Source of the DNA: Obrimoposthia wandeli
Taxonomy: Eukaryota
NCBI GenBank assembly: GCA_977020255.1
Contig: CDROCS010000496.1
Coordinates: forward strand, 496,001-560,000
DNA: 64,000 nt
Direction: 5' to 3'
Below the pieces are notes generated by a model. The model searched no databases. It was given only the letters and a program-made list of their open reading frames with translations, and had not been told where the DNA came from. Shown piece by piece: positions 22,196-42,882 of the stretch (positions are counted from its first letter, which is position 1; each line of letters starts with the position of its first letter). The translations under genes were made by a program, and so were the position numbers.

Positions 22196-22339
22196 GAAAC
22201 GAAAATTAACCACAATCACAAATACGGGATTCAACTCCCTGACCACAAACAGAACCATTAAGTTCTCGTGTCCAAAAAGCTGATTGTATAAAGGTAAACG
22301 TTCCAGTCAGTAAAGATAATTGATTTTATTATTGTATTA

Positions 22340-22640: not shown

Positions 22641-22730
22641 TTCCGCCAGGCTCGCAAGCACCACATACGGACCCTACACCGGACGTCCCACGAGTTGCTG
22701 TAACTGGTAAGAACACAGACTAGGTTCATT

Positions 22731-23161: not shown

Positions 23162-23430
23162 CGGGTCAAACACACAGAGAGAGTAAGGAACAAAGAAACA
23201 TTTAGCTAGAGATCAGAAGTAGGAGCGAAGAAATTTAAGAGAGTTGCGTTATAGATTAACCAACCTAAGTAAGAAGACTAAACCTAAGAAACTTAATCAC
23301 CTGAACGTAAAATCGATACGTGGTTCATCCCCACTTCTTGTAGAGACTTACAGAAGTCCTTTAGGAATTTTATCATACTTTTTAGAAATACGTACATAAA
23401 CGTATTGTGGTGTTAGTTACGTGAATTTTG

Positions 23431-23436
23431 AATAAA
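23431..23436 (+). terminator. Putative LTR polyadenylation signal
   Basis: AATAAA in context ttttgAATAAA, seen in similar context in related LTRs (about 46438, 58813, 60728). Confidence 0.5.
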
Positions 23437-23650
23437 CAATTTCCTACATTAGAACAAGTTGTTTTTACACCCTTCAGACTAAGAGACATCAAATCAAATA
23501 CCTTCAGATAGTACAAGAGATTAGGCAACCATAACACTAAGTAGGCCACGACCAACTTTAAGACCTGCTTCTAATCGAACTCACGTTGGGGTCCTCCGCA
23601 CATAAGAGGCTCTATACCAAGTTTCGTATAGAAACCCCAACATATTAAAG

Positions 23651-23669
23651 TGGTGCCCCGAGTGAGGAT
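23651..23669 (+). other. Primer-binding site, complementary to elongator tRNA-Met 3' end
   Basis: TGGTGCCCCGAGTGAGGAT, 8 nt after the LTR end; matches the complement of the metazoan elongator tRNA-Met 3' end as I recall it (TGGTGCCCCGTGTGAGGAT) with one difference. Confidence 0.75.
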
Positions 23670-23694: not shown

Positions 23695-23975
23695 GTAGAA
23701 TAAGTTCAGATAAGTTTTGGAAAATTGAGAATAAGTTTCAGGTGAATAGAATAAGTTCAGATAAGTTGCAGATAATTGAGAATAAGTTTCAGGTAAATAG
23801 AATAAGTACAGATATTAAGAATAAGTTTCAGATATTAAGAATAAGTTTCAGATATTAAGAATAAGTTTCAGATATTGAGAATAAGTTTCAGATAAATTGA
23901 GAATAAGTTTCAGATAAATTGAGAATAAGTTTCAGCAGAAGAAAATAGACAATTGAGAATAAGTTTCAGAAGAAG
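23695..23975. repeat. Leader tandem array 1 (20-22-bp units, core AGAATAAGTTTCAG)
   Basis: About 13 copies of the core directly downstream of the PBS. Confidence 0.9.
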
Positions 23976-23989
23976 ATATAAGTAAATTG

Positions 23990-24735
23990 AGTTAAGAATT
24001 TGATAAGTGTTGAGAAATCGAGTAGATTTGTTCCTCGAAGTTGAGAAATTGATAAGTGTTGAGAAATCGAGTAGATTTGCTCCTCGAAGTTGAGAATTTG
24101 ATAAGTGTTGAGAAATCGAGTAGATTTGTTCCTCGAAGTTAAGAATTTGATAAGTTTTTGAGAAATCGAGTAGATTTGTTCCTCGAAGTTAAGAATTTGA
24201 TAAGTGTTGAGAAATCGAGTAGATTTGTTCCTCGAAGTTAAGAATTTGATAAGTCTTGAGAAATCGAGTAGATTTGTTCCTCGAAGTTAAGAATTTGATA
24301 AGTGTTGAGAAATCGGGTAGATTTGTTCCTCGAAGTTAAGAATTTGATAAGTTTTGAGAAATCGGGTAGATTTGTTCCTCGAAGTTAAGAATTTGATAAG
24401 TTTTGAGAAATCGGGTAGATTTGTTCCTCGAAGTTAAGAATTTGATAAGTTTTGAGAAATCGGGTAGATTTGTTCCTCGAAGTAAGAATTTGATAAGTTT
24501 TGAGAAGTCGAGTGGATTTGTTCCTCGAGCCAGTAAATTTTATAAGCGAGAATCGAGTGGATTGATACTCGAAGTAATTAATTGAATAAGTTAAGTCGGG
24601 AGACTCTGTCCTCGAACTAATTAAAAAGATAAAAATCGTAAATAAATTGATAAAGTGAGAATCGAGTGGATTGATACTCGAAGTAATTAATTGAATAGGT
24701 TAAGTCGGGAGACTCTGTCCTCGAACTAATTAAAG
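23990..24735. repeat. Leader tandem array 2 (49-bp unit, ~11 copies) plus two related longer units
   Basis: Unit gttaagaatttgataagtgttgagaaatcgagtagatttgttcctcgaa (period 49, e.g. 24181 vs 24230); 24550-24735 has two copies of gaatcgagtggattgatactcgaag...gtcgggagactctgtcctcgaactaattaaa. Confidence 0.92.
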
Positions 24736-25142
24736 AGATAAAAAATCGTAAAATAAGAATTGTGAAATAAGATAAAAATAATAAGTATATTGATATCGTA
24801 AACGAATACATAATTGATAAGACAACGGATAATAGAAAAGGACCCGCGTATAATACTAGAAGACAAAGTCAGATTCCCAAGGAAGAGATAAATAATAATA
24901 AAGTTAACCGAATTGAACAGGTTCCCCAAACAGATAACAAAGTAACAGAAAAGACTAGAGTCGAAGAAAACGTATCAGAAAGAGACGTTGATCAATCAGC
25001 GGTTTCAACCGGCAGTTTTAATTTGACTGAATTATTTGGTGACATAGACCAAGAAGAATTTGAAATTGCCAATCCAGTAGTGATTGAGGAAGTTCCATTG
25101 AATAATATTGAAGAAATAGTTGAAGAAGTTATAGTTGAAAAT

Positions 25143-28100
25143 ATGGCTCAACCAGGAGCTCAAGCAGAAAATAATGCAGGAAATAATGTAGGTGACATGA
25201 ATGCCGAGCAGTTGGCACAAGCTTTAAATGCGACGTTGAGACCCAATTTTTCAGGATCATTGCAGATTACAAAGTTTAAAGGAGACGAGGAAAGTATTTG
25301 TGACTTCCTCGCAGAATATTCGAGTTGTGCAGATGTTCAAGGATGGAACGATAAAGAAAAATGTGTCAGAGTACAGGCACATTTAACCGGATTAGCACTT
25401 GAGGTGTATAAACATTTGACAGAAGCAGAACGTTTAGATTGGCCAACGTTGGAAAATGCTTTTATTGGAAAATTGGTATTAGGAGATTTAGCCAAAGTAA
25501 ATAAGCGACTCATGAGAGAACGGAAACAGAAACATGACGAAGGCGTGAATGAATACGCGTATGTTTTGAGAACCTTGGCCGCAAGAGCGTACCCAAGAAG
25601 AATAATGAGAAATCAGGACGGTAATCCTGTAGCTCCAGAAGCACAAGCAGCGGAAAATGACCGGAACCAAAATGAAATGGCAGAGGTCTTGTTAGATATA
25701 TTTAGAGGAGGATTGAAAAAGGATATTAAAGTGTTATTAGCAGTATCGGATACAAATGATTTTGATAACGCCGTGCGAAAGGCGAGAGAGATAGAGAAAA
25801 ATATAAAGAATAATGCAGCATTGGCAATCTACGCAATGACTGCAGGTGACGACGATAAGACAAAGGTCTTCGTGAATAAAACAGAACCGAGTAATTTTCA
25901 GAATCGAAATTATGGACAAAATAAGTTTGAAAAAATAGATGAATCCAGTAACGGAAATAGAGATAATTTCCGAAGTAGGAATCGAGATGATTCGAGAGGT
26001 AGAAATAATAGTGAGTCTTGGAACAGGAATCGAGATGATTCAAGAGGTAGAAATAATAATGATTCGTGGAATAGAAATAGAGATGATTCCAGGAATAGAT
26101 TTAATAGAGATAATTCAGGAAATCGCCAACCTTGGAGAGGAGACGATAGGAATTATAACGCCAACAGAGGAGAGCGAAGTGACTCTCGATTTGGAAATAA
26201 TGCAGGAAATAGTGACGGAAGATTCAATAATCGAGGAAGCGGTTTTGAATCGAATTTCCGAAGAAATGATTTTAGAGGACGCTATGATAATAGACAGAAT
26301 AGTCGTCGAGTACAGTTCGAAGATGAACAAAATAAGATAGATATTCGAGGGAGAATAATGTGTTATACGTGTAAGCAAATGGGTCACTATTCGAGAGATT
26401 GTACGAGAAGTAAAGAGTTCGGAACTAACAGATTTGGAAATAATAATTTCGGTAATAATAATTTTGGAAATAATTATAGAGGATATAATTCACCTCCGCC
26501 ATGGAATAGAGGTGGTGGATATACTCCACAGCCATGGAGACTGAATAATCAGTATACAGATAGACAACAGTCACCAGGTAGATACAATAACTATGCAGAC
26601 AGACAGCAAGGAGCTGAGAGATACAATAATTACGTAGGACAGCAAGGAGCTGAGAGATATAATAATTCCGGTAGATATAATAATAATAATGTTGACAAGA
26701 CAAATAGTCGAGAGAGTTCGCCGAAACCGAAAGGAAATTTTAGTTATGTAAGCGATGACAGTGATAGGAATCGCGAAACCGAGCTTCGACGCGAAATAGA
26801 TTTTGAAGATAGTGATAGTAAATTTGAACGAATGTTGGGAATAATTAAAGATTCACCACATACAAAGATGGCGAATTCATCTACGTTGTCGAAACAAGAG
26901 AAAAATCTACACTCGAGAGAAGAGATGAATGATTTAATGAATAGAATATTAGAAGCGTACGAGACACCAATAGAGAAAACGTGTAACGCACAACCTATGA
27001 CTGATCATGTAGAAGCAGCAAGAAATGCTACGAGTATGGAAAATGTAAAAAAGATAATTAGTGAAGCTAAGGAAACGTTGAATCAACCGTTAGATGAAAC
27101 GAGTGAAGCTCCAGAAGTTTTGGCCAAATTGCAAACAATTAAAGTGCACCGATTGGAAGAAGTGCGTGCAGAATTGGTTAAACATAGTCATGATAACTTG
27201 GGTTACAAAGAAGTACCCCGAGGACTATTGAAAGGTTATGGTCGTTATGTACAGAGATCAAACCAAACAGGAACGATGAAAATTTCACTTCGATTAATTT
27301 CCGGACAGATAATACATGAAAAACTTAACGTGTATCAAACAATGAAAACGATTCGGAAAAAGTTGGCTGAGAAACTTGAAATTGATGGAATGAATATGTT
27401 GTTCCATTATAAAGGGAGATCACTAGATGATGAGGACGTACCAGTCGAGTTTGGATATCCGATAGGAAATGAATTAGAGGAAAAAATTGATGTCATCACT
27501 GTAGGACGTCAAGAGTTAGTAGATAATGAAGGATTAACCGAGATATTGAATTCTGCGTTAGAAATGATAAAAACGCCTATAGAAATTTTAGACAGTTCAA
27601 GTGAAAGCGGAGATGGTGATGTGGCTGAAGCTTGGAACAAGACGTCTACGCCAGAACCGTACGTAACTGAATTGCAAGACATGAATTTGGAAAATGAGTT
27701 GACAACTCCAGTGGTCGAGGTACCACCAGAACCAGATATAATTCCAATCAGACAAGATGAAGTCACGGATACAGCTAACCAAGTGAGACAAAACGAAACC
27801 GTAACCCAACTAGTAGGAGAAGACGAAGTCTCCGAGATTGTAGATTTGGATTCACCAATTTGGCATGCCGCATACAAAGATAGACAAGCAGAGCAAATGA
27901 TGCGACAAAGTGAAGAGATTGGCCATGAAGAAGGACCAAGTCAAGAGATACAGTATAATGGTGAAACGTATGATCCAGGAGAGAATCAAACTGAGTATCA
28001 GTATTTTCGAAGAGGACCTGGAAGACCTAGAAAAGGCGAAAGTATATTACGAAATGTTCTAACTGCACCACAGACTGATGAAGAGAGACATCTAAGTATT

Positions 28101-31100
28101 GGACAGTTAGCAGCGTCATTAGAGCAGTATAGTGCAGAGAGGAATGAAGATATCAGAGGTGATATGAATTCGGAAACTCCAAGTAGTAAAGATATACTTA
28201 CGGGAATTCTCAGGCAAGTGAAGCCGAAGTTGTTTAAAATGTACAGAGATGAAACAACCGATATAACAGACAATTTGACTAAAGCAGTCAGATCACAGAT
28301 GTCTGCAGTAAAGAGAATGACCGCGAATCATGTATACCATGCATCGATAGATAGATTTTATGACGGTGAAGTTTTAGCGAGATTATGTGGAAACCAGACT
28401 ACAAATAAAAAGTTAATTACAGCAATCACATATCTATGTTTCCAATTGACGGAACGAACGAGCCAACCTCACGAAGTCAAACAAGGAATAAATGAAGCAA
28501 TGTATTTGATCGAGAATGTGTTACAGAGACGAATTGACGAAAATGGAGGTTGGGCAAAATTAAGTGACTACGCTAAAACCATTTTGGAAATGAATGAAGA
28601 CGATGACGAACAATGTCATGAGAATCGTCAAAAGGAAAATAAACAATACCGTCCGAAAGAGAGAAACAATCAACCAAATATGTCCACAACAATGATGATG
28701 ATGATGTTAGTAATGTTTATGGGAATGCAACAGGCATCAGGATTGATAGCATATGACTGTAGCATACCAAAGATGGGACAAAAGTATTCACTGCTTGACA
28801 GCGAAGACTGCCCAGAGTCACAACCGTCAAAACTAGAAGTTCAAGGTGTTGAAAACTACTTTGTGTATCAGGATGTTGATAAAGTACAAGTAGAAGTGAA
28901 AGAATGTTCAATCCATTCAAGTTATCACGAATTCTATTGTGGTCATAGAAGTTTTATGTCAGAAATCACACCTACCACACCGTACAAGGCACATAAGGTT
29001 TTGCCGAGAGATTGCGAAGATGCATTTCGAACGGGAACGATAGAGGTAGACAAGAATTACAAACCTGAAGTAAAAATTGGAGTGAGACGATACGAAACAG
29101 TCACGAGAGTCGGACAACGATGGGCCGATGGATCTTGTGACGGAGGAACAAAAAACGTGCGTGGAACCAAAGTAACCGAGTTAGTAATGGACGTAACTTA
29201 CAAAATCGAATTAAAAACATGGACCGCCAATTTTGATAAAAAGACACAACTAATGATGAAGTATCCAGAATGTAAAATGACAGATACATCTTGTTTTACA
29301 GGCGAATCCACAATTGTGTATAACATAAATCCGAAGCAATGCTCTTTAGTATTTTTGAAAGAGATTAGCTTTAATAAAATAAAAGGATTCCTGTATAATA
29401 AAGATGGAGAAGGATTCCTGTATAATAAAGTTGGAAAAGGATTGCTCAATGAAACAAGACCAATCCCAATGACAAAGACACCTACACTGTTAATGGCAAC
29501 ATCAATAGAAGAAGGATTGATATTTATTAAAAAGAGAAACAAAGCGCGATGCGGAATGACTGTTAGTACTACAAACTATCCAGGAATAGTTTTGTCTAAA
29601 GAAGCAATAGCATTGGCAGAAACCAAGCTAAAACCAAAAGATATGCAGCTACATACGTATTTTAATAATAAAATTGATTTCTATTATCATAAAGGATTGA
29701 TGCAAATGGAACAGTTATATCGAATGATGATTGAAAGAGATTGCCAGCTAAACAAAGAGATCGTGAGAACAAAGTTAGCATTAGCTATTACGAATCCAGA
29801 CATGGTAGCACCATTATTACCCTTGGATGAAGGAGTATTTGCTAAAACCATGGGAGAAGTATTGTATACTTACAAGTGTAATAAAGTAGAGGTACAGTTG
29901 AGAAAAACAAATCGATGTACGAGTGAATTGGCAGTAACGTATAATTTAAAAGATCTTTTTGTTGAACCAATCACGAGAATGTTACTTCCAAAAGACACTC
30001 CAACTAAAGAAATCAGCTGCTCTAATATAATGGCACCTGAATATCAGATGACGAATAATCTATGGATAACGTTACCTGATCGGAAGCCAACGAAAACCCC
30101 AGCGATGATAAGAATGACGAATCTTAAAGGTAAAATGAAATTCCAAGCGGTGGAAAATATGGAGAACGCAGGATTGTACAATGAAAAAGACTTAAAAGCG
30201 GCGTGGAACGAAATAATGTTTCCAGTAAGAAGAGCCAGAGTACTTACGGAGATGGTACATCGAGCATTACCGCCAGGAGCGAGATATGCGAATTTTGATA
30301 TGTTATTGTCGCCAAGTCATTTCAAGGAAGCAGCACATCAGACACTTAGAAAGATGTGGGGGAAATTCCTTGTTTTAGGACAATTATTTTCGGGTATCAT
30401 AGGTATTTATGTTATAATTAAATTTGTGCAGGTAATTATAGCCCAGGTGTTGTCTACGTATAGTTTATACAGGATAACCGGAATCACCTGGCAACTTATA
30501 ATTGGATGTTTTCCATTTTTAGCAAAATATCTAATGCACCATCATCACGAGAACGAGTTGCGAGCCCTCAAGAAGGAACAACACCAAACGAGAACCATGA
30601 TGAGAGAACCAAGAAACTGTCGAGACGATAACGACGACGATAATGATAGTCCAGGAGTATATGCAAAGATACCAGGAAAACCAAAGATTCCGTTACCAGA
30701 CAAGGAAGAAGTGGCGTTAAACCTATACCCAATGAAGGAATTGAAGGAAGAGAAGGAAAAATTCAAGAGAGGCATCTTAATGATAAGATGGCCTAAAGTG
30801 AGCTACAGTGAAATTCCACAAGCAGAGGAAAAAGACAAAAAAGATAATTCCAGAAGAATTCTGAAGTCTAGGATATCAAATGAGAATCCAAATGCTCCAC
30901 CACAAGTAGCAGTAACATTGAACGGAAGAGAATATCTTGCCGAAGTTGATACCGGATCTGCAGTATCAGTACTGAGTAAAGAAATCTTGTCATCAAAAGA
31001 ATTAAGAGAAGTATGTCCTAGAAAACAGACATTTGTTAACGTGAATGGTACAGATGTAGTGTCGGAAGGAACACTGAAATGTTCATTGAATATCGATGGA

Positions 31101-31334
31101 AGAGTATTACAGTTAAATGCTAGAATATTCACAGATTGCGGTAGTCCAGTCATGATTGGGATGGACGTAATACGAATGTTTGAAGGAATAATTATACTAC
31201 CAAACAACAAGAGTTATAAGAATGACAGTTCAGTGAGAGAGATAAAAATGTTGAGAGGACCTATAGTCGAAAAGGAAAAATGCACTACGTTCCGTATGGG
31301 AAGTTCGTACCCAGACAAAAACAGGAAGCGCTAG
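25143..31334 (+). CDS. Polyprotein segment 1: Gag - UBL - AT-hook - Bcl-2-like - Env glycoprotein - aspartic protease 1
   Basis: ORF 25023-31334, first ATG at 25143 (MAQPGA). Capsid-like FLAEYSSCADVQGW..EKC; CYTCKQMGHYSRDC knuckle (26361-26402); VDTGSAVSV...IGMDVI protease (30900-31200). Confidence 0.93.
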   Translation: MAQPGAQAENNAGNNVGDMNAEQLAQALNATLRPNFSGSLQITKFKGDEESICDFLAEYSSCADVQGWNDKEKCVRVQAHLTGLALEVYKHLTEAERLDWPTLENAFIGKLVLGDLAKVNKRLMRERKQKHDEGVNEYAYVLRTLAARAYPRRIMRNQDGNPVAPEAQAAENDRNQNEMAEVLLDIFRGGLKKDIKVLLAVSDTNDFDNAVRKAREIEKNIKNNAALAIYAMTAGDDDKTKVFVNKTEPSNFQNRNYGQNKFEKIDESSNGNRDNFRSRNRDDSRGRNNSESWNRNRDDSRGRNNNDSWNRNRDDSRNRFNRDNSGNRQPWRGDDRNYNANRGERSDSRFGNNAGNSDGRFNNRGSGFESNFRRNDFRGRYDNRQNSRRVQFEDEQNKIDIRGRIMCYTCKQMGHYSRDCTRSKEFGTNRFGNNNFGNNNFGNNYRGYNSPPPWNRGGGYTPQPWRLNNQYTDRQQSPGRYNNYADRQQGAERYNNYVGQQGAERYNNSGRYNNNNVDKTNSRESSPKPKGNFSYVSDDSDRNRETELRREIDFEDSDSKFERMLGIIKDSPHTKMANSSTLSKQEKNLHSREEMNDLMNRILEAYETPIEKTCNAQPMTDHVEAARNATSMENVKKIISEAKETLNQPLDETSEAPEVLAKLQTIKVHRLEEVRAELVKHSHDNLGYKEVPRGLLKGYGRYVQRSNQTGTMKISLRLISGQIIHEKLNVYQTMKTIRKKLAEKLEIDGMNMLFHYKGRSLDDEDVPVEFGYPIGNELEEKIDVITVGRQELVDNEGLTEILNSALEMIKTPIEILDSSSESGDGDVAEAWNKTSTPEPYVTELQDMNLENELTTPVVEVPPEPDIIPIRQDEVTDTANQVRQNETVTQLVGEDEVSEIVDLDSPIWHAAYKDRQAEQMMRQSEEIGHEEGPSQEIQYNGETYDPGENQTEYQYFRRGPGRPRKGESILRNVLTAPQTDEERHLSIGQLAASLEQYSAERNEDIRGDMNSETPSSKDILTGILRQVKPKLFKMYRDETTDITDNLTKAVRSQMSAVKRMTANHVYHASIDRFYDGEVLARLCGNQTTNKKLITAITYLCFQLTERTSQPHEVKQGINEAMYLIENVLQRRIDENGGWAKLSDYAKTILEMNEDDDEQCHENRQKENKQYRPKERNNQPNMSTTMMMMMLVMFMGMQQASGLIAYDCSIPKMGQKYSLLDSEDCPESQPSKLEVQGVENYFVYQDVDKVQVEVKECSIHSSYHEFYCGHRSFMSEITPTTPYKAHKVLPRDCEDAFRTGTIEVDKNYKPEVKIGVRRYETVTRVGQRWADGSCDGGTKNVRGTKVTELVMDVTYKIELKTWTANFDKKTQLMMKYPECKMTDTSCFTGESTIVYNINPKQCSLVFLKEISFNKIKGFLYNKDGEGFLYNKVGKGLLNETRPIPMTKTPTLLMATSIEEGLIFIKKRNKARCGMTVSTTNYPGIVLSKEAIALAETKLKPKDMQLHTYFNNKIDFYYHKGLMQMEQLYRMMIERDCQLNKEIVRTKLALAITNPDMVAPLLPLDEGVFAKTMGEVLYTYKCNKVEVQLRKTNRCTSELAVTYNLKDLFVEPITRMLLPKDTPTKEISCSNIMAPEYQMTNNLWITLPDRKPTKTPAMIRMTNLKGKMKFQAVENMENAGLYNEKDLKAAWNEIMFPVRRARVLTEMVHRALPPGARYANFDMLLSPSHFKEAAHQTLRKMWGKFLVLGQLFSGIIGIYVIIKFVQVIIAQVLSTYSLYRITGITWQLIIGCFPFLAKYLMHHHHENELRALKKEQHQTRTMMREPRNCRDDNDDDNDSPGVYAKIPGKPKIPLPDKEEVALNLYPMKELKEEKEKFKRGILMIRWPKVSYSEIPQAEEKDKKDNSRRILKSRISNENPNAPPQVAVTLNGREYLAEVDTGSAVSVLSKEILSSKELREVCPRKQTFVNVNGTDVVSEGTLKCSLNIDGRVLQLNARIFTDCGSPVMIGMDVIRMFEGIIILPNNKSYKNDSSVREIKMLRGPIVEKEKCTTFRMGSSYPDKNRKR
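27276..27506 (+). other. Ubiquitin/SUMO-like domain within segment 1
   Basis: MKISLRLISGQIIHEKLNVYQTMKTIRKKLAEKLEIDGMNMLFHYKGRSLDDEDVPVEFG...KIDVITV; beta-grasp pattern with SUMO-like F-x-Y-x-G...D-x-P...IDV; no terminal diGly. Confidence 0.7.
28188..28590 (+). other. Bcl-2-like helical domain within segment 1
   Basis: BH2-like RRIDENGGWAKL (NGGW at 28542-53); degenerate BH1-like GNQTTNKKLITAITYLCFQL at Bcl-2-like spacing. Confidence 0.55.
28680..30540 (+). other. Chuvirus-like (class III, gB-type) envelope glycoprotein within segment 1
   Basis: Signal-like MSTTMMMMMLVMFMGMQQASG then LIAYDC..YSLLDSEDC; ERDCQLNKEIVRTKLALAITNPD..GEVLYTYKC.KVEV..R.T.RC..EL.V, as in chuviral G proteins; C-terminal TM FLVLGQLFSGIIGIYVIIKFVQVII. 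Confidence 0.85.
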
Positions 31335-32090
31335 CAAAGTCGATACTTCACTACAAAAATGTAAATTTCGGACCACAAGATACGACGAGGAGAAAAATAA
31401 CATACGTAAATCTGTCAGAAAGGGATCCCATGAGATTCGAGAGAAAGAGACGAAATATATTAGAACAGTACTATTCAAAAGGAATGGCACGTAAAATGGC
31501 AAGATCAGGTTTAGAAATGTTAAACGCGACAAGCAGTTATGGTCAGGAGATAGTAGTACGATGCGTATGGTGTAGAGTAAAGTTTAGAGAATGGGAACAG
31601 AATGAAAACCCAATGAGACGTCATAAAGAGATGCACCAAATTGTCCATTTCTTTTGAAACTGAAAACGTCAAACGTACCAGAAATCCAAACGGGAAAAGC
31701 ACCCGATTTCGATTACAGTGACGGGATTCCAAAAGGAGAATCAGCTCTAATAACAGGAAGAGTAATAACGAATAGTCGAATTGAAGATATATTCGAAGTT
31801 ATGCGAGAAGTGAACGAATGTGACGAACAATATCGAGAAGTAACTTTCGAAGATCCAAGACTTAAAAAATTGGCAAAAAAGGAATTTTTGCTATAAAAAG
31901 GGATGGTAACGACGTAATTAAATGCCACAAGTGTAAAAAAGAACGAATTATCGACAGATACACTCTTGAGCTACCTAAGAAAATTTTACATCATGAATTT
32001 TGCGAATTTTGTACTTGTAAAAACAAAATAAAGCAAAAAGAACAGAAAACCGAATGTATAATCGAATACCAAATCACACGGAAAGAGATT
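31280..32090 (+). CDS. Polyprotein segment 2: two BIR domains (split across three frames)
   Basis: BIR1 KMARSGL...VVRCVWC..F.EWEQNENPMRRHKEMH[P]NCPFL, completed by one-base repair at about 31637. BIR2 RLKKLAK[K]GIFAIKRDGNDVIKCHKC...ILHHEFCEF, completed by one-base repair at about 31878; this frame runs into ORF 32091. Confidence 0.8.
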
Positions 32091-34496
32091 TTGGCTCAAC
32101 AAGACACACCGGTAGTGTCATTCGTGAGAAGGTTATATCCAAAAGAAGCAGAAAGAATCAGAGAATTGGTAGAATTAAAAATAAAAACTACGCGAAACGG
32201 ATATGGATCGATTTTTGAATTACTGCGAGATAAAGATGACAGTACAATTGAAACAAAAGAGAAAGAGTACATAAATGAACTAGAATACGTACTAGAAGAT
32301 CCGGAATGCGCAGTTTGCATGGTTAACAAAATAGAAGTTGCCTTTCTACCATGCGGACATGTAAGAACATGTCGGAGATGTGCGAATGAAATGGTATCAT
32401 GTCCGATTTGTCGAAGAATAATAGATCGACAAGTGAGAAACATTAGATTTCACTATCCAAACATAGGAAGTGGACGGACAGAGTGTAATAATTCGATAAA
32501 TACAATATACCATATGGGAAACATAAATGGAGCACAGCGACCAGCAGCTATCATTAGAGTAAATAATTTAAGAGTAAAAGCTTTAATTGATACAGGTGCT
32601 GTAGCTTCGATAGTAAGTGAAGACTGTTTGACAGAGGAACAGAAACGAACAATGGCAGAACCAGATGAATTCTTGGTATCGGTCAATGGAGACCCTGTAA
32701 AAGTGACGGGAATATTACCATGTACATTTATAATTGGACGTAATACGATCACTATACCAGTTAGAATCATGAAAGAATGTCCTGAACCTACAATTTTAGG
32801 AATGGATGTATTATCACAACTCAAAGGGATAAGTATTGATTTACAGGATCCAAGATTGAAGGATAGTACATCAAACAGACAAATAAACCAAATTGATGTA
32901 ATTATAGAGAATCCTATAAAAATCGGTAAAAGATCACAATTTCTCATTCAAGGTCACACATTATCAGAAGATAAAGGACCAGTTGTGTTCGAACCATCAC
33001 GAGATTTCATAGAGAAATACGAACTACCAGTTGTGAGTACGGTATGCCTGATCGAAAACCACAAAATACCAGTTAGACTGATGAATACAACCAACAATGA
33101 CATTCTATTATACAGAGGAATGAGGTTGGGAAAGATAGCACAGATGGAGAATTCCACTGTATGCGCTATGAAACTCGATAAAGATACGAATGATTACGAA
33201 GAAATAGTAATCCAATCAGAAAGACTAACAACTAGAGAAAAGAAACAATTACTTGATCTAATACATAAATTTCCGAAAGTAATTGCAAAAAATCCATATG
33301 ACATAGGAGAAACACCTGTCATAAAACATACAATACCACTGACAGAAGACAAAGTAGTCAGAAGAAGACCATATCGAGTACCATTACAATTACAAGATGA
33401 AGTAAAAAGTCAGATTGAAGATATGTCTAAAACAGGAGTAATTAGACCGAGTTTTTCGCCATTCTCAGCACCTGTAGTGTTGGTAAAAAAGAAGGATGGG
33501 AAAATGAGATTCTGTATAGATTTCAGAGAACTGAACAAGATCACAAGAAAAGATGTGTATCCATTACCTAGAATCGAAGAGATGCTCGATAAATTGGGTA
33601 ATTCAGATTATTTTACAACATTGGATTTGCAGAGTGGATACTGGCAAATCGAGATAGAGGAAGAGGATAAACACAAAACAGCCTTTTCTTGCGGAGATGG
33701 ATTATACGAATGCGAAAAGATGCCATTCGGACTGACAGGAGCTCCAGCAACATTTCAGCGTTGCATGAATTTTGTACTCGCATCGTGTGCAAATACGATG
33801 GTTTATATCGATGACATAATAATATTTTCGAAAACGTTCGAAGAACATTTAAAAAATCTTGAAGTTGTATTTAAAAGACTGGAAAACGCTAAATTAAAAG
33901 TTAAACCTACAAAATGCGTATGGGCTAAAGAGCGAGTAACATTTTTAGGACATATAGTATCGAAAGAAGGCATTCGACCTGATCCAGCAAAGATCGAGAA
34001 AGTAAAAGCGCATTTAGCGCCAAAGACTGTTAAAGAGATACAGAGTTTTTTAGGTCTTGCAAATTATTATAGACGATTTGTTGAACATTTTTCAGATATA
34101 GCAACACCATTGAGAAAGTTGACGAGAAAAGATGAGAAGTTCATATGGGGAGAAGAAGCCCAACAAGCGTTCGAGCATTTAAAAGAAAGACTGATAAAAG
34201 CACCAATATTAGCGTTTCCAGATATAAACCGACAATTCATACTAATGACAGATGCAAGTAACTATGCTGTAGGAGCAGTATTGGGACAAGAGGATGACGA
34301 AGGAAGAGAACACGTCATTGCGTATGCGAGTAGAGGATTAAACAGAGCCGAAAGAGGATACTCTGTTATCGAAAAGGAATGTCTAGCCATAGTGTATTCA
34401 TGTAGACAGTACAGACACTATTTGCTAGGACAAAAGTATTCCTGTATACAGATCACAAACCACTACAGTTCTTGTATAAACATAGAGATGAGATGA
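32091..34496 (+). CDS. Polyprotein segment 3: IAP-type RING - aspartic protease 2 - RT - RNase H (N-part)
   Basis: CAVCMVNKIEVAFLPCGHVRTCRRCANEMVSCPICR (32307-32411); LIDTGAVAS..ILGMDVL; RFCIDFRELN..YPLPRI, MPFGL..AP.TFQ, YIDD (33804-15); MTDASNYAVGAVL, YSVIEKECLA. Confidence 0.97.
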   Translation: MAQQDTPVVSFVRRLYPKEAERIRELVELKIKTTRNGYGSIFELLRDKDDSTIETKEKEYINELEYVLEDPECAVCMVNKIEVAFLPCGHVRTCRRCANEMVSCPICRRIIDRQVRNIRFHYPNIGSGRTECNNSINTIYHMGNINGAQRPAAIIRVNNLRVKALIDTGAVASIVSEDCLTEEQKRTMAEPDEFLVSVNGDPVKVTGILPCTFIIGRNTITIPVRIMKECPEPTILGMDVLSQLKGISIDLQDPRLKDSTSNRQINQIDVIIENPIKIGKRSQFLIQGHTLSEDKGPVVFEPSRDFIEKYELPVVSTVCLIENHKIPVRLMNTTNNDILLYRGMRLGKIAQMENSTVCAMKLDKDTNDYEEIVIQSERLTTREKKQLLDLIHKFPKVIAKNPYDIGETPVIKHTIPLTEDKVVRRRPYRVPLQLQDEVKSQIEDMSKTGVIRPSFSPFSAPVVLVKKKDGKMRFCIDFRELNKITRKDVYPLPRIEEMLDKLGNSDYFTTLDLQSGYWQIEIEEEDKHKTAFSCGDGLYECEKMPFGLTGAPATFQRCMNFVLASCANTMVYIDDIIIFSKTFEEHLKNLEVVFKRLENAKLKVKPTKCVWAKERVTFLGHIVSKEGIRPDPAKIEKVKAHLAPKTVKEIQSFLGLANYYRRFVEHFSDIATPLRKLTRKDEKFIWGEEAQQAFEHLKERLIKAPILAFPDINRQFILMTDASNYAVGAVLGQEDDEGREHVIAYASRGLNRAERGYSVIEKECLAIVYSCRQYRHYLLGQKYSCIQITNHYSSCINIEMR

Positions 34497-35737
34497 GTAG
34501 ATTAAACAGATGGTTTCTAAAATTGGCCGAATTCGATCTAGAAATCCGTTATAGAACCGGAAAGTCGAACGGCAACGCAGATTGTTTGTCGAGATTGACA
34601 AATGTAGACGAGAAAGGAAACATAATTCCAGAAGAAGATGAAACCAATGACCAAAAAGGAGAAGCAAATCTACTGACGATTTTGCTAAAGACGGGTAAAA
34701 TAGACAAAGAGATCATCAAAGAACAGAAAGAAGATGAAGAACTGAGTCTAATCAAAGAATTGTTGGTGAAAGGAGATCTAAACGATGAAATGACGAAAAA
34801 TACTCAATAAAAAGAAGGAATCTTGTATATTGTCAATAATGTCGGAAAGATAGTAGTAGTAATTCCGAAGTCATTGAAAACAGCAGTGATGATCCAGTAT
34901 CACGACGGAACACTAGGAGGACATCTGTCAGGGCGAAAGACAATAGCCAGAATCAAAGAGAAGTACCATTGGGATGGTATGGAAGACGACATAAAACAAT
35001 GGTGTAAACAATGTAAAGTATGTTTAACCAGAAAAGACACCGGAACTCGTACTAAAGTTCCACTGAAACCAATGCCAGTTCCCTTGGCACCAATGGAATT
35101 CACAGCGATGGATATATTGGGACCATTGAGAGAATCAAGTAAAGGAAACAAGTATGTCATAGTATTTACGGATTACATGACGAGATGGGTAGAAGCATAT
35201 CCCATGCAGAACCAGAAAGCTGAAACAATAGCGCAAATCTTAGTGGAAGAGATAATATTTCGATACGGAGTGCCTAGAAAGTTGTTAACGGATCAAGGTA
35301 AGAACTTCACTGGAGAAGTCATAAAAGCAGTATCGAAGATATTCGGAATCATGAAGTTACAAACTTCACCATATCACCCACAGACAGATGGTCTGGTGGA
35401 AAGGTTTAATAAAACTTTATGTATGATGGTACAATCCTATTGCTCAGACAAGCAAGAGGATTGGGATAAATATTTACCTTCATGTTTATATGCTTACAGG
35501 AATTCAGTTCGAGAGGCGACGGGTCACACACCATTCTATCTGATGTATCTCAGACAGAACAATATGCCAATGGATCTGGAGTGGACCGAGCCAACATCTC
35601 AGTACCTAGAAACTGAACAATACATTGTCGTCATGAAGGAAAGATTACAAGATGCTTGGACCAAAGCCGGATTGAAGTTGAAATTCAATCAAGAAGGTTA
35701 CAAGGAACAATACGACAAAAAAGCAAAAACCACATGA
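34472..35737 (+). CDS. Polyprotein segment 4: RNase H C-part and integrase Zn/core (in-frame TAA at 34808)
   Basis: TDHKPL in shifted frame, NGNADCLSR, YHDGTLGGHL...CKQCKVC, AMDILGPL, LLTDQGKNF, QTDGLVERFNKTL. Confidence 0.95.
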
Positions 35738-35756: not shown

Positions 35757-38700
35757 GTGATGATATTTTATCCAGTCATCGAACCAGGTCTATCGTTTAA
35801 ACTTCATAGACCATACAAAGGACCCTACAAGGTGATCCAGACAACCTCAACAAATTTGAAAGTAATCAACGAAGAGAATCGGAACAAAGAACCGATGATT
35901 GTACATGCAAATCGATGCAAATTAGTACCAAATAAAGATAATGCGTCACGATATGAGTTAAGATCACAGAAATCGAAATCGAATACCAATACCATTAAAC
36001 TTACACGAATGGTAAGTGATCGGAACTACATAAACATGATGACGAGTGGTAGCGAAGAAAAACCAGCGAGAATTGGTATGCTCAGAATGAAGTACCAAGA
36101 GGAAAAGGAAGTAATCCGACACATCGCACCACAAGAGATATTAGAAGAAGACGAAGAGATAATAGTCGTTTTCGAAAAAACACAACCAACAGATGTAGCT
36201 AAAGAAGTCATTGTGAAAGATGCACTAACAAACGAATTTCTGTGCGAACTTAGAGTATCATACTACGACGGAAATACATTAGTCGCAGCACTTTATCAAA
36301 ATTCCAATGTGTTTACGACTGAGAAAGTGATAATCGAAATCACATTGACACCAAACATAGTTGCATGGCAGAACTATGACAGTACTGAAGCAGGACTAGC
36401 CAGTCAGGAAGAAAAAGAACCGGCCGGTGGTCACATACTGCATGGTACACCAAAAAGACTCAAACAAGAATACCACGATGTAATAATGGTATTACGTAAT
36501 TCACATGGGAAAAGAGATATCATGAGAGTCCATTTAATCGACGCTGACACTGAAAAGATAATTTGTCAGATGGACACCAAATACTTTGATGGAAAGACAA
36601 TTGTATGTTGTATACCAGAATCTCACCGATTAGAGACAGATCAAACGGAAGTATCTGTAAGGTTGAGCGTAATAGAAGGATTCCATTCGCCAACCTATCC
36701 GGAAGTGACTAACAATAAAATCATCAAAGCAACGGCAGAATTACGCATTGACAGCGGATACCGGAAGTGGGAAGCTAAAAATAAAAAACCACAAAGAATC
36801 AATATGATCCGAGAACAAGTAACAACTTCAAACCAGCCAAAATATCATGCTGAAATAGTATCATCCGCGCCAAGTGTGATCACATCGATAAACGACGAAA
36901 TTATAATTTTACTAAAAAATCGATGGCCGTCATCAACCGAGATACGAGTAAATTTAATTAATCATGCGAAGACACCGATATCTAAGCTGAATGTTACCTA
37001 TTTCGATGGATTGTCCATCATGGGTAAATTGGAAACAATTGTCATGTGCTATGGAGCACAGTTCCAAGTTGAGATACTTAAAGATAGTGTAATACCGTAT
37101 CCGATTCACAAATACGAAGGGGAAATCAATCCAATTATTCTAACACCTTCATTAATTTCAGTCCAGACAGACATACCAGAATACCCTTCGAGCGAGTCTA
37201 GTGAAGACAGCGAACCAGAAAGTAACGATACAGAATCAACAGAATCCGAAGATAACATAATAGAGCGATTCGGAAGAACCATGGAGATTGAATTCGCTAA
37301 AGAGAGCAGAAAAAGACAAAACATAGAATTCGTGAAACAGAATATACAAGAAAGACGAATTAAATCTGCAGAAGAGACCGAGTCGGAAGAAGACTCAACA
37401 AAGGAACAGACATCAGAGACAAAGATGAATATCTCTCCAGCAATACGAATGCTGAGAGGAAAGAAACTGGCGAAACTATCCAACATCGACGAACAGATAG
37501 AGAAGAGATTAGAAAGACTAAAACTTGAAGAGTCAGAATTAATGCCACCAATGAGTGAGATCATTCCAGGTAAGTTATACCTCGGAAATGTGGAGGATGC
37601 AACAGATGAAAAGAAACTGTTGGAACAAGGAATAACATATGTGATCAACGTTACAATGAATCACAAATCGCAATATCAGACGATCAGAGCTATGACATTA
37701 AGAGTAAAAGACTCAATGGACGCTAATCTTCTCGAATGGTTCGTAGAAACAAACGAAATACTTCACAGAGAACTCCGGAACAAAGGAAAAGTGTTGGTAC
37801 ATTGTCAGAAAGGAATTTCTCGATCAGCAACCCTAGTATTAGCATATCTAATAAAGACTAGACGAATGCAGGTACTAGAAGCGTTAAAATACCTACAGGA
37901 GAGAAGAAGTATTGCAAACCCAAATCTTAATTTTTTGGGACAGTTGGCAAATTACCAACTTCTGTTGCAAGAACAAAGACGGATGGACGACATTCCTGAG
38001 GATCCAAAGGAAAAGAATTTCCTCCAAGCATTATCATTGACCGGGTTATTTTTAGCCGGAGTCGATAAAATTACACAGATAATGCCAAAAGTATTTTTAT
38101 GTCATCCAGGAGATATAGATACTGCTGGATTAAAGTTCCATAGTATCAACCGAGTAATCAACATTGTTGAAGTCGGAAATGAGATAATTAGTCTGTGTCA
38201 AAATACTGAAGATGACACCACTCGATACATACATGCTTCCAATCGAGAGATAAACGATGCACAACAACATTTGACGAAATTGACTCAAACCATCCAAGCT
38301 GAAGTCACAGAAGGAAACGGCGTTCTGATATATCAGAAAAAAGGTACAATGTTAGCGCCTACCATAGGTGTATCCTTGTTGGTAGAGTACCATGGTCACA
38401 CGCCAGAAGAAGCAATGGTCTACATCAAACAGAATAGACCGAATACGGAATTCAAACCGTTACTCGTTCGAGAAATAGAGAAATACACCGAAAAGAGGAA
38501 ACAACAACGAGAAACAAATGAAGCTACAACAACAGCGCCCAGCTTTCAATACCAAAGATTGCTAGCGATAGGCTTGTTAAGTTGTTTAATGCCGATAACG
38601 GGAGCACAGGAGATAGGCTCCAACCACGGAAATAGTTCCTGGTTCAACGAAATCCAAAATTACACCATACAGTACCATACGCCAGCACTGATGATGCTAT

Positions 38701-39809: not shown

Positions 39810-41222
39810 TCTCGCAAGACGAACAGGTCAAATGAATTTACAAAATTCAACACAATTATACCAAGACCACCATTTTTAGACGAACCAGCACCAGAATACC
39901 AGCCAACGATATATGAACACATCGAGGAAAGACCGTACTATATGAGTAATTTGACTTGTTTCATTGAAGTTCCTGAGTTTAGGAATCGAACGATCATAGG
40001 AATCATGCTGATCGCACAAATCACCACTACCAAGGCTAGTTATGAGATCATGATCAGTAAATGGAGACAAGACGTAATACGGGCAATATACATAGAAATT
40101 CCCCTACTAAAAACAAATCACGTAGTAGACATTCATCTACAGACGTCAGCAACTGACAATATCGATCAGAAATTGTATGTCATCCGACAGGTCAGAATAA
40201 AAATCGACCAAAATACACCCGTTTACAATTTAATATTATTGCATCATGAAAGAGTGTTATACCTACGGATAACAATATCAAAGAGGAAGCGGATTATCCA
40301 AAGCATCCGAACAAAGTCATTAATATTACCTAGAGATGAGCGCATCTGGAAAATTGTCGACAGGATTATGATCACAGGTAGACGACGTAAAGCCGTATGG
40401 AATTCCGTTAGGTTATTTTTCAGATTGCTAGAAACTGACAGCGTGACAGTAATGTGTCCCAACCCAGATGGCGTAATCAGATTCGAAATCCAAAGCCAAA
40501 TGTTAGTACCACATTTTAACACAGAATGTCTGTGTAATCGAATTGCCAGTAATTCTACAGAGACCTCGACCATAATCATGATAATAACAGGTGAAATATT
40601 CTACATAACTCTAAGATACCAGAACCGTCGATTTCGCAGATACGGTATAAGTATCAAACCCAGGAAAATCATTCCCAGAAGACCAATTCTAGTCAAAAAG
40701 AAGGCAAAGGTAATCGAAAGTAAACGACATTCCAAGAAACCGACAGTGATCAAAACAAAGACAGAAGCGAAAGAAAAAGAGTCCAATCCCAGAAACCAAA
40801 GTACAATTATTAAGAGGACAAGAGTGAGGGGAACGATCCCACTAGATCCCAAACATCATTTTCCATCCAAAATAATAATACCTGTTCCACCAGAAACAAA
40901 ACACCCAAATCCCCGAATTTTTAGAAAATCGGACATAATACATGGAAACCGATCAAAACCCATGGAAATATCATTCGAACCGACAAACAACAAAATGAAG
41001 TATGATTATAAATCATCAGACAGCGGAATAACAGCGGTCAATGCCCTAATTGGAATGGCCGTAGTGTCAACAGCAGTGGTTTTATTGACAATCGTGTGCG
41101 TAAAAGGCAGTCAAGTATGCCCAGGAATACGACGGAAATGCGAAGGATTGCGATGCTGTGACACACCCATCATGGAGGAAGTGGAATTGCGACCCTTACC
41201 TCCGCCTCCCATCAAGATATGA
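39810..41222 (+). CDS. Polyprotein segment 6: predicted type I membrane protein (same frame as segment 5 past a single TGA)
   Basis: Frame is open from 39810 into ORF 39942-41222; signal-like IIGIMLIAQITTTKA, TM AVNALIGMAVVSTAVVLLTIVCV, tail RPLPPPPIKI*. No family recognised. Confidence 0.7.
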   Translation, partial: SRKTNRSNEFTKFNTIIPRPPFLDEPAPEYQPTIYEHIEERPYYMSNLTCFIEVPEFRNRTIIGIMLIAQITTTKASYEIMISKWRQDVIRAIYIEIPLLKTNHVVDIHLQTSATDNIDQKLYVIRQVRIKIDQNTPVYNLILLHHERVLYLRITISKRKRIIQSIRTKSLILPRDERIWKIVDRIMITGRRRKAVWNSVRLFFRLLETDSVTVMCPNPDGVIRFEIQSQMLVPHFNTECLCNRIASNSTETSTIIMIITGEIFYITLRYQNRRFRRYGISIKPRKIIPRRPILVKKKAKVIESKRHSKKPTVIKTKTEAKEKESNPRNQSTIIKRTRVRGTIPLDPKHHFPSKIIIPVPPETKHPNPRIFRKSDIIHGNRSKPMEISFEPTNNKMKYDYKSSDSGITAVNALIGMAVVSTAVVLLTIVCVKGSQVCPGIRRKCEGLRCCDTPIMEEVELRPLPPPPIKI

Positions 41223-41345
41223 TGAGTCAGAGGAGGTTGTAGATAAATTAGTGTGTGAAATATGTAGAAATATCTAGAAGCGATTGTACAAATAGTAGAA
41301 GTATATAAAACTCATGTGGAAATTAATCATCATCATGTATTTAGA

Positions 41346-41645
41346 ATGGCCGAGGAATGCCCAATATGTTTAGAAGATCTAACCGAACGAAGAACAAGAC
41401 CCGAAACCTGCAACCATTTACACCACGAGGAATGTTTATCGACATGGATCAGAACTTATGGACAGTTCGGACACCCAACATACCCTCGTTGCCCTATATG
41501 CAGAAGACAATTCGCAAGATTCGTCATGTTAGAACCCAACCAAAGGGATGTATATGTACAGGTGGTATTCTGCTGGAAGAATTTCGGAGAGTGTTGGTGT
41601 TATTACTGTTTGTCAGATCGACAAAATCAGACCACTTTTGTGTAA
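41346..41645 (+). CDS. Small RING-H2 protein 1
   Basis: MAEECPIC...TCNHLHHEEC...CPIC plus C-terminal CWKNFGECWCYYC; TATA-like gtatataaaa at 41301. Confidence 0.85.
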   Translation: MAEECPICLEDLTERRTRPETCNHLHHEECLSTWIRTYGQFGHPTYPRCPICRRQFARFVMLEPNQRDVYVQVVFCWKNFGECWCYYCLSDRQNQTTFV

Positions 41646-41705
41646 AGATCACACAACCACCAGTCCTCAATCGAGCCCAAATTCAACATCAACCCTCCCA
41701 CAGTA

Positions 41706-42011
41706 ATGTCTGGAGAATGTTCCATCTGCTACGAGAGCATCGTGGACTTCTACACCAAGCCCAACAACTGCGACCACTTTTTCCACGTCGAATGCCTCGA
41801 GACGTGGATTCCCATCGCAAACAGCAACAACCCACTCGACTTCCCAACCTGCCCGATGTGCAGAGCGACCTTCTCAGTACACTACGTGTACAACCAAGAC
41901 AGCCTCCAAGCAGTGGTACCCATCGTACACTGCTGGAAAACCATCTGCGATTGCTGGTGCTCGTTCTGCGTGGAGGAGCGAAGCACAGGCCAGCCCAATC
42001 CCCAACAATAA
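41706..42011 (+). CDS. Small RING-H2 protein 2
   Basis: MSGECSIC...NCDHFFHVEC...CPMC plus CWKTICDCWCSFC. Confidence 0.88.
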   Translation: MSGECSICYESIVDFYTKPNNCDHFFHVECLETWIPIANSNNPLDFPTCPMCRATFSVHYVYNQDSLQAVVPIVHCWKTICDCWCSFCVEERSTGQPNPQQ

Positions 42012-42345
42012 TCGAAGGTAACTTTCTGACTTGAACGTGACATCATGAACTACCCTGTGTATCGCAAACCGCGATAAATTAGCTACCATAATTGTAATCA
42101 TAATTATATAATCTTGTGAACTGTAAATTGACCATTACCATTTTTATGTATGATGTTTAACTGAAATTGTAATTATTATACTGAATTTCTAAAAAAGACA
42201 ATTTTTATGCTTAGTGTGAATGCGTAAACATGCCTAAAATCGAAACAAAACTCGGTAGGATTAGATAACTAAGGATTCATTTTGAAATAGAATTTAAATT
42301 AACGATGAGAACGGTGAACCCCAAATTGAAAGGAGTCATTTTCTC

Positions 42346-42882
42346 ATGCAGATGTTGTGCTCCGTATGCATGGAGAAGATTTGGGCGGTATCGGCATCCC
42401 CTGTCGGCTGCCGTCACAAATTTCACGAGGAGTGCCTCTATTTGTGGACCAAGGTTCGAACCTCCGGACAAATCACCTGTCCACTGTGCCGGACACCCTT
42501 CGCCAAATGGACACTCCAGAGCCGCGGAAGACACAAAGGCACCCGATCGCCTGCCAGCTGCATTGGTGGCATCCATTGCCAATGCTACGTGTGTCTCGCA
42601 CGCCGGCGCGACACACAACTGGGCGTCCGCGAGAGATGGCGGTCTAGTCGAGACTGCCACTCGTGGTTCCAGGCCAGACGGCACTGGATTGAAAACCATA
42701 CCATGAACAGGCAGCACTTCGACCTGTTCATCGACAGCCCGCATTTGACCCGGAGCCAGCAACTCCATTTGTACAACGGGGACAGTCCGTCCTTTCCCGA
42801 CCTTCCCCTGGAGCAGGTTCTACGCTACCTGACCAGTCGGAACCAGCCGACAATAACAATTGACCTCACACATGAAAACTGA
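42346..42882 (+). CDS. RING-H2 protein 3 with C-terminal SIM-like motif
   Basis: CSVC...GCRHKFHEEC...CPLC, CIGGIHCQCYVC, C-terminal PTITIDLTHEN*. Confidence 0.85.
   Translation: MQMLCSVCMEKIWAVSASPVGCRHKFHEECLYLWTKVRTSGQITCPLCRTPFAKWTLQSRGRHKGTRSPASCIGGIHCQCYVCLARRRDTQLGVRERWRSSRDCHSWFQARRHWIENHTMNRQHFDLFIDSPHLTRSQQLHLYNGDSPSFPDLPLEQVLRYLTSRNQPTITIDLTHEN

Follow-up and report, generated by a model that had tools for sequence, protein, structure and literature searches.

Is the inhibitor of apoptosis protein (IAP) that a giant retroelement carries in the middle of its polyprotein a discrete working product, and what would such a product do in the host cell? The question is raised by a 64,000-nucleotide stretch of the Obrimoposthia wandeli genome (assembly GCA_977020255.1, contig CDROCS010000496.1, positions 496,001–560,000 of the forward strand; hereafter the window, whose first letter is position 1), in which a long terminal repeat (LTR) retroelement encodes an IAP between two retropepsins, protease 1 (PR1) and protease 2 (PR2). 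The original prediction, made from the letters of the window, proposed a complete BIR-BIR-RING protein that is released by the flanking proteases, inhibits and ubiquitinates caspases, and keeps infected or transposing cells alive. The following features of the IAP stretch are referred to below; numbered frame breaks are those of the window copy, and counts refer to open reading frames (ORFs) or copies elsewhere in the genome.

30774–30788: second copy of the putative cleavage motif, before PR1
30906–31175, + strand: PR1, a retropepsin; catalytic Asp in 24 of 24 covering ORFs
31242–31256, + strand: putative cleavage motif, aliphatic-any-Met-aliphatic-Arg, after PR1; kept in 32 of 33 covering ORFs
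31317–31321, + strand: frame break 1, in the PR1–BIR1 spacer; length differs in 29 of 29 other copies
31420–31660 (approximate), + strand: BIR1, C-x2-C-x16-H-x6-C, with a type I-like groove
Near 31624–31628: frame break 2, in BIR1
31815–32018 (approximate), + strand: BIR2, divergent, C-x2-C-x18-H-x3-C
Within 31864–31902: frame break 3, in BIR2
32052–32246, + strand: UBA-like domain of the cIAP/XIAP type, by profile and fold
32298–32450, + strand: C3HC4 RING of the IAP type plus tail; zf-C3HC4_3 E = 8e-12 at about 32298–32429
32454–32522, + strand: RING–PR2 spacer; it holds two candidate cut sites, both of them conserved at 36 of 37 ORFs apiece
32454–32459: aromatic-proline bond, a candidate cut site of that spacer
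About 32505–32522: Met-containing motif, the other candidate cut site
32535–32828, + strand: PR2, a retropepsin with 30% identity to PR1; catalytic Asp in 37 of 37 ORFs

The IAP sits in a cargo slot flanked by two retropepsins, and natural copies of the element read PR1, BIR1, BIR2, the UBA-like domain, RING, and PR2 in one frame without repair, within polyproteins of about 5,000 residues. Among 30 loci chosen on the RING stretch alone (1,451 candidates, 40 scored, 30 kept, the window included), BIR1, BIR2, RING, and PR2 stood in a single natural ORF at 10, five of which also held the PR1 motif in that ORF, and the other 20 were split at scattered places. Queries with outgroup proteins, which favor in-frame copies, returned 88 and 150 places, and 78 of the 88 were free of stops inside. 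Natural open frames over the IAP reach lengths of 4,722–5,220 residues. The IAP frame that the original prediction had reached by repair is thus supported by the copies, although a repair of a single base in BIR1 was an underestimate: the frame is indeed broken there, with a second break inside the predicted IAP and a third near 31317, making three across PR1–RING. Break 1 cuts the window IAP off from PR1, and at break 2 the length differs from that of the window in 26 of 29 other copies. Breaks are equally common in the reverse transcriptase (RT) and env regions and mostly lie within single-base runs. Sequencing reads gave a mixed picture as to whether the breaks are assembly errors or true mutations: run X5, from another study, carried an indel relative to the window at break 1 and at break 3, in a single contig for each and at a depth below 5, and left break 2 uncovered, and in runs X1–X3, from one sample that is possibly the source, rows with an indel made up only about 7–15%, 13–30%, and <1% of a depth that was counted incompletely on short contigs, with variation in other runs as well. 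One independent dataset that holds the sequence is labelled marine metagenome; no RNA dataset was among those listed, which is uninformative as to expression.

A programmed −1 frameshift in BIR2 was considered because all 30 loci of the first search were out of frame there. However, the change lay in single-base runs that differed between copies, as this search had scored loci by their similarity to the broken window; when the query lay outside the BIR2 stretch, 10 of 30 loci were open through BIR2, and the programmed frameshift was therefore rejected. A second subfamily differing upstream of 31177 was also rejected, since the suspected loci align over the whole query. In two further copies with frames of 4,700–5,000 residues (L174:3000–4469 and L173:5673–7178), a lone in-frame stop splits off an N-terminal Gag part of about 490–500 residues; no stop is present at the corresponding place in the window.

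The domain anatomy was read from a natural copy (P0001), in the order PR1, BIR1, linker, BIR2, UBA-like domain, RING, and PR2, the ends of the two BIRs being approximate and taken from Pfam offsets. The Pfam matches to BIR and zf-C3HC4_3 that the original prediction had called for were obtained (E = 5.5e-7 and 8e-12) and are flanked, as it had stated, by aspartic proteases. The BIR1 match lies in the window ORF 31226–31657 and strengthens to E = 2.8e-10 in the natural copy; the predicted BIR1 model superimposes on survivin with a Z score of 8.6 and a root mean square deviation (RMSD) of 2.8 over 78 aligned residues, and the full BIR1 ligand pattern was present at 27 of the 30 loci chosen on RING alone. 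BIR2, already described as divergent, lacks the canonical spacing, and its zinc ligands do not vary among the 7 family rows. Its model is confident (predicted local distance difference test score, pLDDT, 75), and the 27 structural matches to it are headed by 15 BIR-type chains (Z = 4.8–6.8; the next match scored 3.1); its family profile found 43 domains, spread over 40 of 148 other proteins, and drew no match from shuffled sequences. The models thus indicate that BIR2 is a BIR by fold with non-canonical zinc spacing. With Foldseek, neither model obtained a match at E = 0.001 or better, though the lists were of BIR type.

Between BIR2 and RING lies a domain that the predicted BIR-BIR-RING make-up, otherwise right in its three parts, had missed. 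This region is helical and aligns weakly with cIAP1; the best stand-alone fold match is the XIAP UBA (Z = 5.4, RMSD 3.2, 53 aligned residues), and the family profile matched 20 of 148 other proteins and none of the shuffled ones. Baculovirus IAPs are not known to have a UBA. The presence of the UBA-like domain therefore suggests an ancestor among cellular BIR-UBA-RING IAPs of the cIAP/XIAP type rather than a baculovirus-type BIR-BIR-RING protein.

Selection was assessed on 37 natural ORFs from 60 loci, which were required to be open and to have the BIR1 and RING patterns and whose pairs are non-independent, by the ratio of nonsynonymous to synonymous polymorphism (pN/pS). The ratio was 0.06 for PR1, 0.06 for PR2, 0.07 for RING, 0.14 for the UBA-like domain, 0.30 for BIR2, and 0.40 for BIR1, against a range of 0.25–0.52 for linkers and spacers (the spacers at 0.39 and 0.52). 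The four BIR2 ligands, which were not a selection criterion, were retained in 37, 37, 37, and 36 of the 37 ORFs; the zinc ligands, whose loss across copies would have spoken against the predicted IAP, are thus kept in BIR2 and, at 27 of the 30 loci chosen on RING alone, in BIR1. The IAP is under purifying selection, with a strongly constrained ligase end and a much less constrained BIR1.

As for release, the five-residue Met motif occurs 5 times in the element compared with 0.4 times in shuffles, and none of 500 shuffles scored as high. Similar motifs adjoin the repeated proteases of a distant relative, P0014, and we infer that the motif marks cleavage. The C-terminal end of the product has a bearing on RING function: the free RING tail is important for dimerisation, and of 149 RING-bearing proteins, 114 stop precisely 13 residues past the last RING Cys. 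As encoded, the element chain continues into PR2 and has no such free C-terminus. Stand-alone relatives have 13–29 residues after the last RING Cys, and the Polinton relatives have 18 with a near-identical tail; the RING would therefore work as a free protein elsewhere. Release of the IAP by the flanking proteases, predicted here from the sequence, is plausible. Repeated proteases are also found in relatives without an IAP: P0036 and P0109 have two around unrelated cargo, P0014 has four, and P0036 and P0014 bear an env. By eye, the inter-protease stretch of P0036 holds two C2H2-like zinc fingers. The repeated proteases are therefore a trait of the lineage, and the IAP is one cargo among others, and the varying cargo suggests a route by which a single-ORF retroelement may gain genes.

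The BIR grooves bear on what a released IAP would bind. In type II BIRs, the passage on these domains in PMC6360406 places the binding of caspases and antagonists in a groove spanning positions 306–323, and type I BIRs, with a basic residue at 319 and no aromatic residue at 323, are described there as not inhibiting caspases and as binding TRAF or TAB1 (PMC6360406). In all 5 copies examined, the element BIR1 carries Lys306, Arg319, and Asp/Glu323, and thus lacks the type II combination of Gly306, Glu/Gln319, and Trp/His323. For comparison, the last BIRs of other IAPs have Gly306 in 82, Glu/Gln319 in 114, and Trp323 in 89 of 129 cases, and the first BIRs have Arg/Lys319 in 40 of 76. These residues make direct caspase inhibition by the IAP unlikely and, together with the missing canonical spacing in BIR2, weaken that part of the original prediction.

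We therefore propose the following model. The element would make one polyprotein of about 5,000 residues in which the IAP (BIR1-BIR2-UBA-RING) fills the cargo slot; the proteases would cut at the Met motif after PR1 and within the RING–PR2 spacer, freeing an IAP of about 400–425 residues; the BIRs would recruit host signalling proteins through surfaces other than the groove that binds the IAP-binding motif (IBM), and the RING and UBA-like domains would ubiquitinate them; and this ubiquitination would damp death or innate-immune signalling in element-expressing cells, where the Bcl-2-like, phosphatase, and RING accessory domains may act alongside the IAP. On balance, the IAP is probably a ubiquitin ligase that the proteases set free and that targets death or immune signalling of the host; its release, ligase activity, and targets are predictions, and its function is argued from knowledge of the family. 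If so, the element offers a discrete, selected product whose ends are predicted and which lends itself to assays in isolation; the activity expected of it is that of a ligase and not of a caspase inhibitor.

Several observations tell against this proposal or the data behind it: (i) the BIR1 ratio of 0.40 is no lower than that of the adjoining spacer (0.39); (ii) the 37 ORFs were chosen for BIR1 and RING patterns, and ligand counts for these two domains are therefore circular in that set; (iii) the Met motif pattern was selected by eye after being seen; (iv) the exact boundary motif is absent between RING and PR2, and the C-terminal cut is therefore uncertain; (v) the predicted tail of the released IAP is about 15 or about 35 residues, compared with the typical 13; (vi) the Pfam family PF21290 (UBA_BIRC2-3) did not match the UBA-like domain, whose identity finds modest support at Z = 5.4; and (vii) the model of the whole IAP is poor, with a mean pLDDT of 52 and the RING unmodelled.

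Three other readings have to be set beside the proposed ligase. Direct caspase inhibition by the released IAP, or the soaking up of antagonists that bear an IBM, in the manner of XIAP or DIAP1, gains from the match of BIR1 and RING to IAPs, with DIAP1-BIR1 among the best single-domain matches, from the retained Trp310 and acidic 314 in BIR1, from the weak Bcl-2-like motif in the same polyprotein, and from XIAP BIR2, which has a Lys at the 306-equivalent and yet binds IBMs (in the passage of PMC6360406 on that groove). We consider it unlikely, given the Arg319 and Asp/Glu323 of all 5 copies, compared with the Glu/Gln319 prevalent in last BIRs, and the absence of canonical helix spacing in BIR2. 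The ligase could also be turned on the element itself, that is to say, on Gag, Env, or Pol products, or through tethered self-ubiquitination that limits RT and integrase. The IAP would be made 1:1 with Gag and Pol from one frame, with no gag–pol frameshift to set a ratio; the constraint on RING far exceeds that on BIR1; and the typical free IAP-RING C-terminus is absent as encoded. All three agree with a self-directed ligase, to which we nevertheless give little credence, as both BIRs are retained, stand-alone relatives exist in unrelated DNA elements that have no Gag or Pol, and related retroelements do without an IAP.

A functionless, decaying passenger would account for the split of 20 of 30 loci somewhere in the IAP stretch and for a BIR1 ratio equal to that of the spacer; the low ratios of RING and the UBA-like domain largely refute it, and the breaks, which are as frequent in RT and env and fall mainly in single-base runs, leave this reading very improbable. 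A protease-released ligase directed at host signalling remains the reading that we prefer.

Where did this IAP come from? A genome search with the Pfam BIR domain gave 12,110 candidates, and the 30 loci inspected included one gene resembling survivin, one resembling BIRC6, and stand-alone IAPs without introns that form two families (301 and 341 residues). The first two (L061 and L062) we take, by eye, to be host BIR genes. In four regions with stand-alone IAPs, Pfam matches to an A32-like ATPase, an rve integrase, and a family-B polymerase are spread across the regions, and three of the four have inverted repeats of 400–650 bp; the stand-alone IAPs therefore lie in Polinton-like elements. For the double jelly-roll capsid protein, Pfam gave no match, leaving candidate ORFs of 326–423 residues. 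Two high-copy Polinton-like families carry these IAPs (L091–L102; for example, L092:801–1703 on the + strand and L095:5414–6436 on the − strand), and some Polinton copies (L133–L135) have in-frame deletions of a BIR2 remnant.

The Polinton IAPs are the best relatives found, with 33% identity to the retroelement IAP over 344 residues and 49% over UBA-RING. The public proteins P0002, P0003, P0006, and P0008 stand level with them, P0002 at 30% identity. Trees were built on UBA-RING with 8 element or family rows and 24 cellular IAPs, the mixture-model tree being run without P0008 and near-copies. In that tree, the mobile-element IAPs and the related public proteins form a branch apart from the 24 cellular IAPs with support of 100/100. 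The phylogeny that the original prediction had suggested thus separates the IAP from cellular ones, on rows drawn from mobile elements, related public proteins, and cellular IAPs. A clade of the LTR and Polinton IAPs was not recovered in the free tree and was not rejected either (approximately unbiased, AU, test, p = 0.165). At the DNA level, the retroelement and Polinton IAPs resemble each other only in patches (64–80% over 45–182 bp), which argues against recent exchange. The IAP thus appears, from its sequence, to be a divergent lineage common to the retroelement and to Polinton-like elements of the same genome, the sharing being old, and would represent a case in which a class I and a class II element share an accessory gene. 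Two features of the trees count against this conclusion: the grouping of the mobile IAPs may owe something to long branches, and the cellular rows include no RING-IAP from a flatworm.

It is a distinct possibility, short of probable, that a single fast-evolving IAP gene of the host was captured twice, once by the retroelement and once by the Polintons, and never moved from one to the other. The 33% identity to the Polinton IAP, which is about the 30% of P0002, and the failure of the LTR and Polinton IAPs to form a clade by themselves in the free tree are what two captures would give. Two captures are harder to square with five genome searches that turned up no host RING-IAP gene, whether with introns or of canonical make-up, among the matches scored or inspected; scoring took in 4–150 candidates out of a maximum of about 20,000, part of the scored ones were inspected, and element copies swamped the results. 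Two captures also fit less well with the report in PMC13159474 that RING-IAPs are absent from the flatworms sampled, in a passage where Schmidtea and Macrostomum go unmentioned. If the host has no cellular RING-IAP, the elements would provide an activity that it has lost. A still wider scenario builds on the shared lineage; we offer it as speculation and regard it as rather unlikely: the tandem retropepsins would be a modular slot that excises captured host-control proteins and gives them defined ends, and the IAP lineage, living only in mobile elements, would have passed between a Polinton virus and an env-bearing retroelement (in either direction) while the host lost its RING-IAP and thousands of element copies became the sole source of the ligase.

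Wider searches added little: single-protein homolog searches returned nothing, a profile search returned 4 proteins, and viral and metagenome contigs held no related loci. Atlas matches, all under 0.9, were set aside as leads only. On large contigs, COX1 copies use AAA for Asn, ATA for Ile, and TGA for Trp (the table 9 pattern, which is also that of echinoderms), consistent with a flatworm; we take their residues to be flatworm-like, at the phylum level only. The assembly also has many bacterial-type COX1 genes and one table 5-like COX1 on a 27-kb contig (L171), which suggests foreign DNA.

The element around the IAP spans 21754–45041 of the window (23.3 kb), with 99.9% identity between the 5' and 3' LTRs over 1889 columns. 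Its remaining features are as follows.

21750–21753 and 45043–45046, flanking the element: target-site duplication, the same 4-bp word, read directly from the sequence
21754–23642, + strand: 5' LTR, about 1.9 kb, ends read from the sequence
23651–23668, + strand: primer-binding-site-like stretch
25377–26405, + strand: Gag, with Retrotrans_gag at E = 0.01 (weak, below cut-off) and a CCHC knuckle (zf-CCHC, E = 1.2e-5)
27288–27437, + strand: weak ubiquitin-like domain (PF00240, E = 0.0078, below cut-off)
28365–28553, + strand: weak Bcl-2-like stretch (PF00452, E = 0.056, below cut-off)
29475–30635 (best-scoring stretch), + strand: Env-like fusion glycoprotein of the Monjiviricetes type (PF24664, E = 1.3e-94)
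33483–35380, + strand: RT, RNase H, and integrase, by Pfam; more breaks of the window copy near 34432 and 34810
37575–38477, + strand: two dual-specificity-phosphatase-like domains at the C-terminal end of the polyprotein (DSPc E = 8.8e-40; the second E = 1.6e-6)
41268–42882, + strand: three short RING-H2 accessory ORFs upstream of the 3' LTR, by Pfam
43153–45041, + strand: 3' LTR, its final base unlike that of the 5' LTR

The stretch at 23651–23668 presumably resembles the 3' end of tRNA-Met. The Pfam order along the element is CCHC, fusion glycoprotein, PR1, BIR, IAP-type RING, PR2, RT, RNase H, integrase, phosphatase, and RING-H2 ORFs; the Env-like domain is in frame with gag upstream and pol downstream, between zf-CCHC and PR1. 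The ubiquitin-like and then the BCL2-like matches precede env in the same order as in the planarian element Burro, both below Pfam cut-offs, and Pfam, the one resource used for this, gave no match to MATH/TRAF, ankyrin, or dUTPase-like motifs in the element. By its layout, the element appears to be a Burro-like giant Ty3/gypsy retroelement with an env, likened to Burro by published description.

The second phosphatase-like domain (within 37575–38477) scored below cut-off, and by eye its catalytic Cys seems to be missing. Directly after the polyprotein stop comes an ORF of 470 residues with no Pfam match, followed by the three related RING-H2 ORFs (39810–42882), and this block recurs within a Polinton-bearing region (L093:7486–9999) as part of a nested element copy. 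Tandem arrays of a 48-bp unit lie inside the LTRs (22357–22644 and 43756–44043), and arrays of 49-, 51-, and 109-bp units lie in the 5' leader (23696–24752). Outside the element, old LTR-like fragments of 78–79% similarity occur at 58862–58962 and 20425–20570, and two adjacent in-frame ORFs of 263 and 244 residues in a GC-rich patch (52519–54045, + strand) resemble, by eye, a decayed DNA-transposon gene.

Compared with cellular RING-IAPs (cIAP1/2, XIAP, DIAP2, and those of molluscs and brachiopods), the element IAP has the same BIR-BIR-UBA-RING order, with a homologous RING and a UBA-like domain that is probably homologous, and differs in that (i) it has two BIRs, neither of type II; (ii) the zinc spacing of BIR2 is altered; (iii) it has no introns; (iv) it is embedded in a polyprotein and, as encoded, has no free 13-residue tail; and (v) it falls on a separate branch of the tree. 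Baculovirus IAPs are likewise virus-borne two-BIR RING proteins; the element IAP is set apart from that description by its UBA-like domain, its lack of type II grooves, and its polyprotein origin with predicted release.

IAP and Bcl2 homologs have been described in adintoviruses (PMC8502044). The Polinton IAPs of the present genome are free ORFs with their own stop, in which BIR2 is partly or wholly lost, and a kinship between adintovirus IAPs and a retroelement IAP does not appear in the passage of PMC8502044 on these homologs. In bivalves, IAP gene models with LTR or non-LTR retroelement domains in one locus have been described; as presented in the relevant passage, these are intron-bearing host genes and not a high-copy polyprotein with an IAP between proteases (PMC8917759).

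The closest known system is Burro, whose single ORF of 4,900–5,100 residues has ubiquitin-like, BCL2-like, and BIR motifs and an in-frame mononegavirus-like env, with MATH/TRAF, ankyrin, and dUTPase-like motifs varying among the published Burros (PMC6431247); Burro is expressed upon PIWI loss (PMC8532177). Interference of Burro with host apoptosis and ubiquitination has already been suggested (PMC6431247). Burro/GYPSM1 and the present element have in common a giant LTR element in a flatworm host, a single ORF, a Gag knuckle, an in-frame mononegavirus-like env between gag and pol, a BIR, the PR-RT-RH-IN order, and accessory ORFs; Burro exceeds 30 kb compared with 23.3 kb here, and the passages of PMC6431247 on Burro/GYPSM1 mention a BIR motif only, the IAP-type RING, UBA, second protease, and phosphatases being those of this element. 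The literature gave no full IAP between two proteases and no sharing of an IAP between Burro and Polintons, although the figures and supplements of the Burro and adintovirus papers may hold a RING or a second protease. A BIR in such elements is thus already published; the present element, with its complete IAP of ligase type set between proteases, shows this known arrangement in a fuller form.

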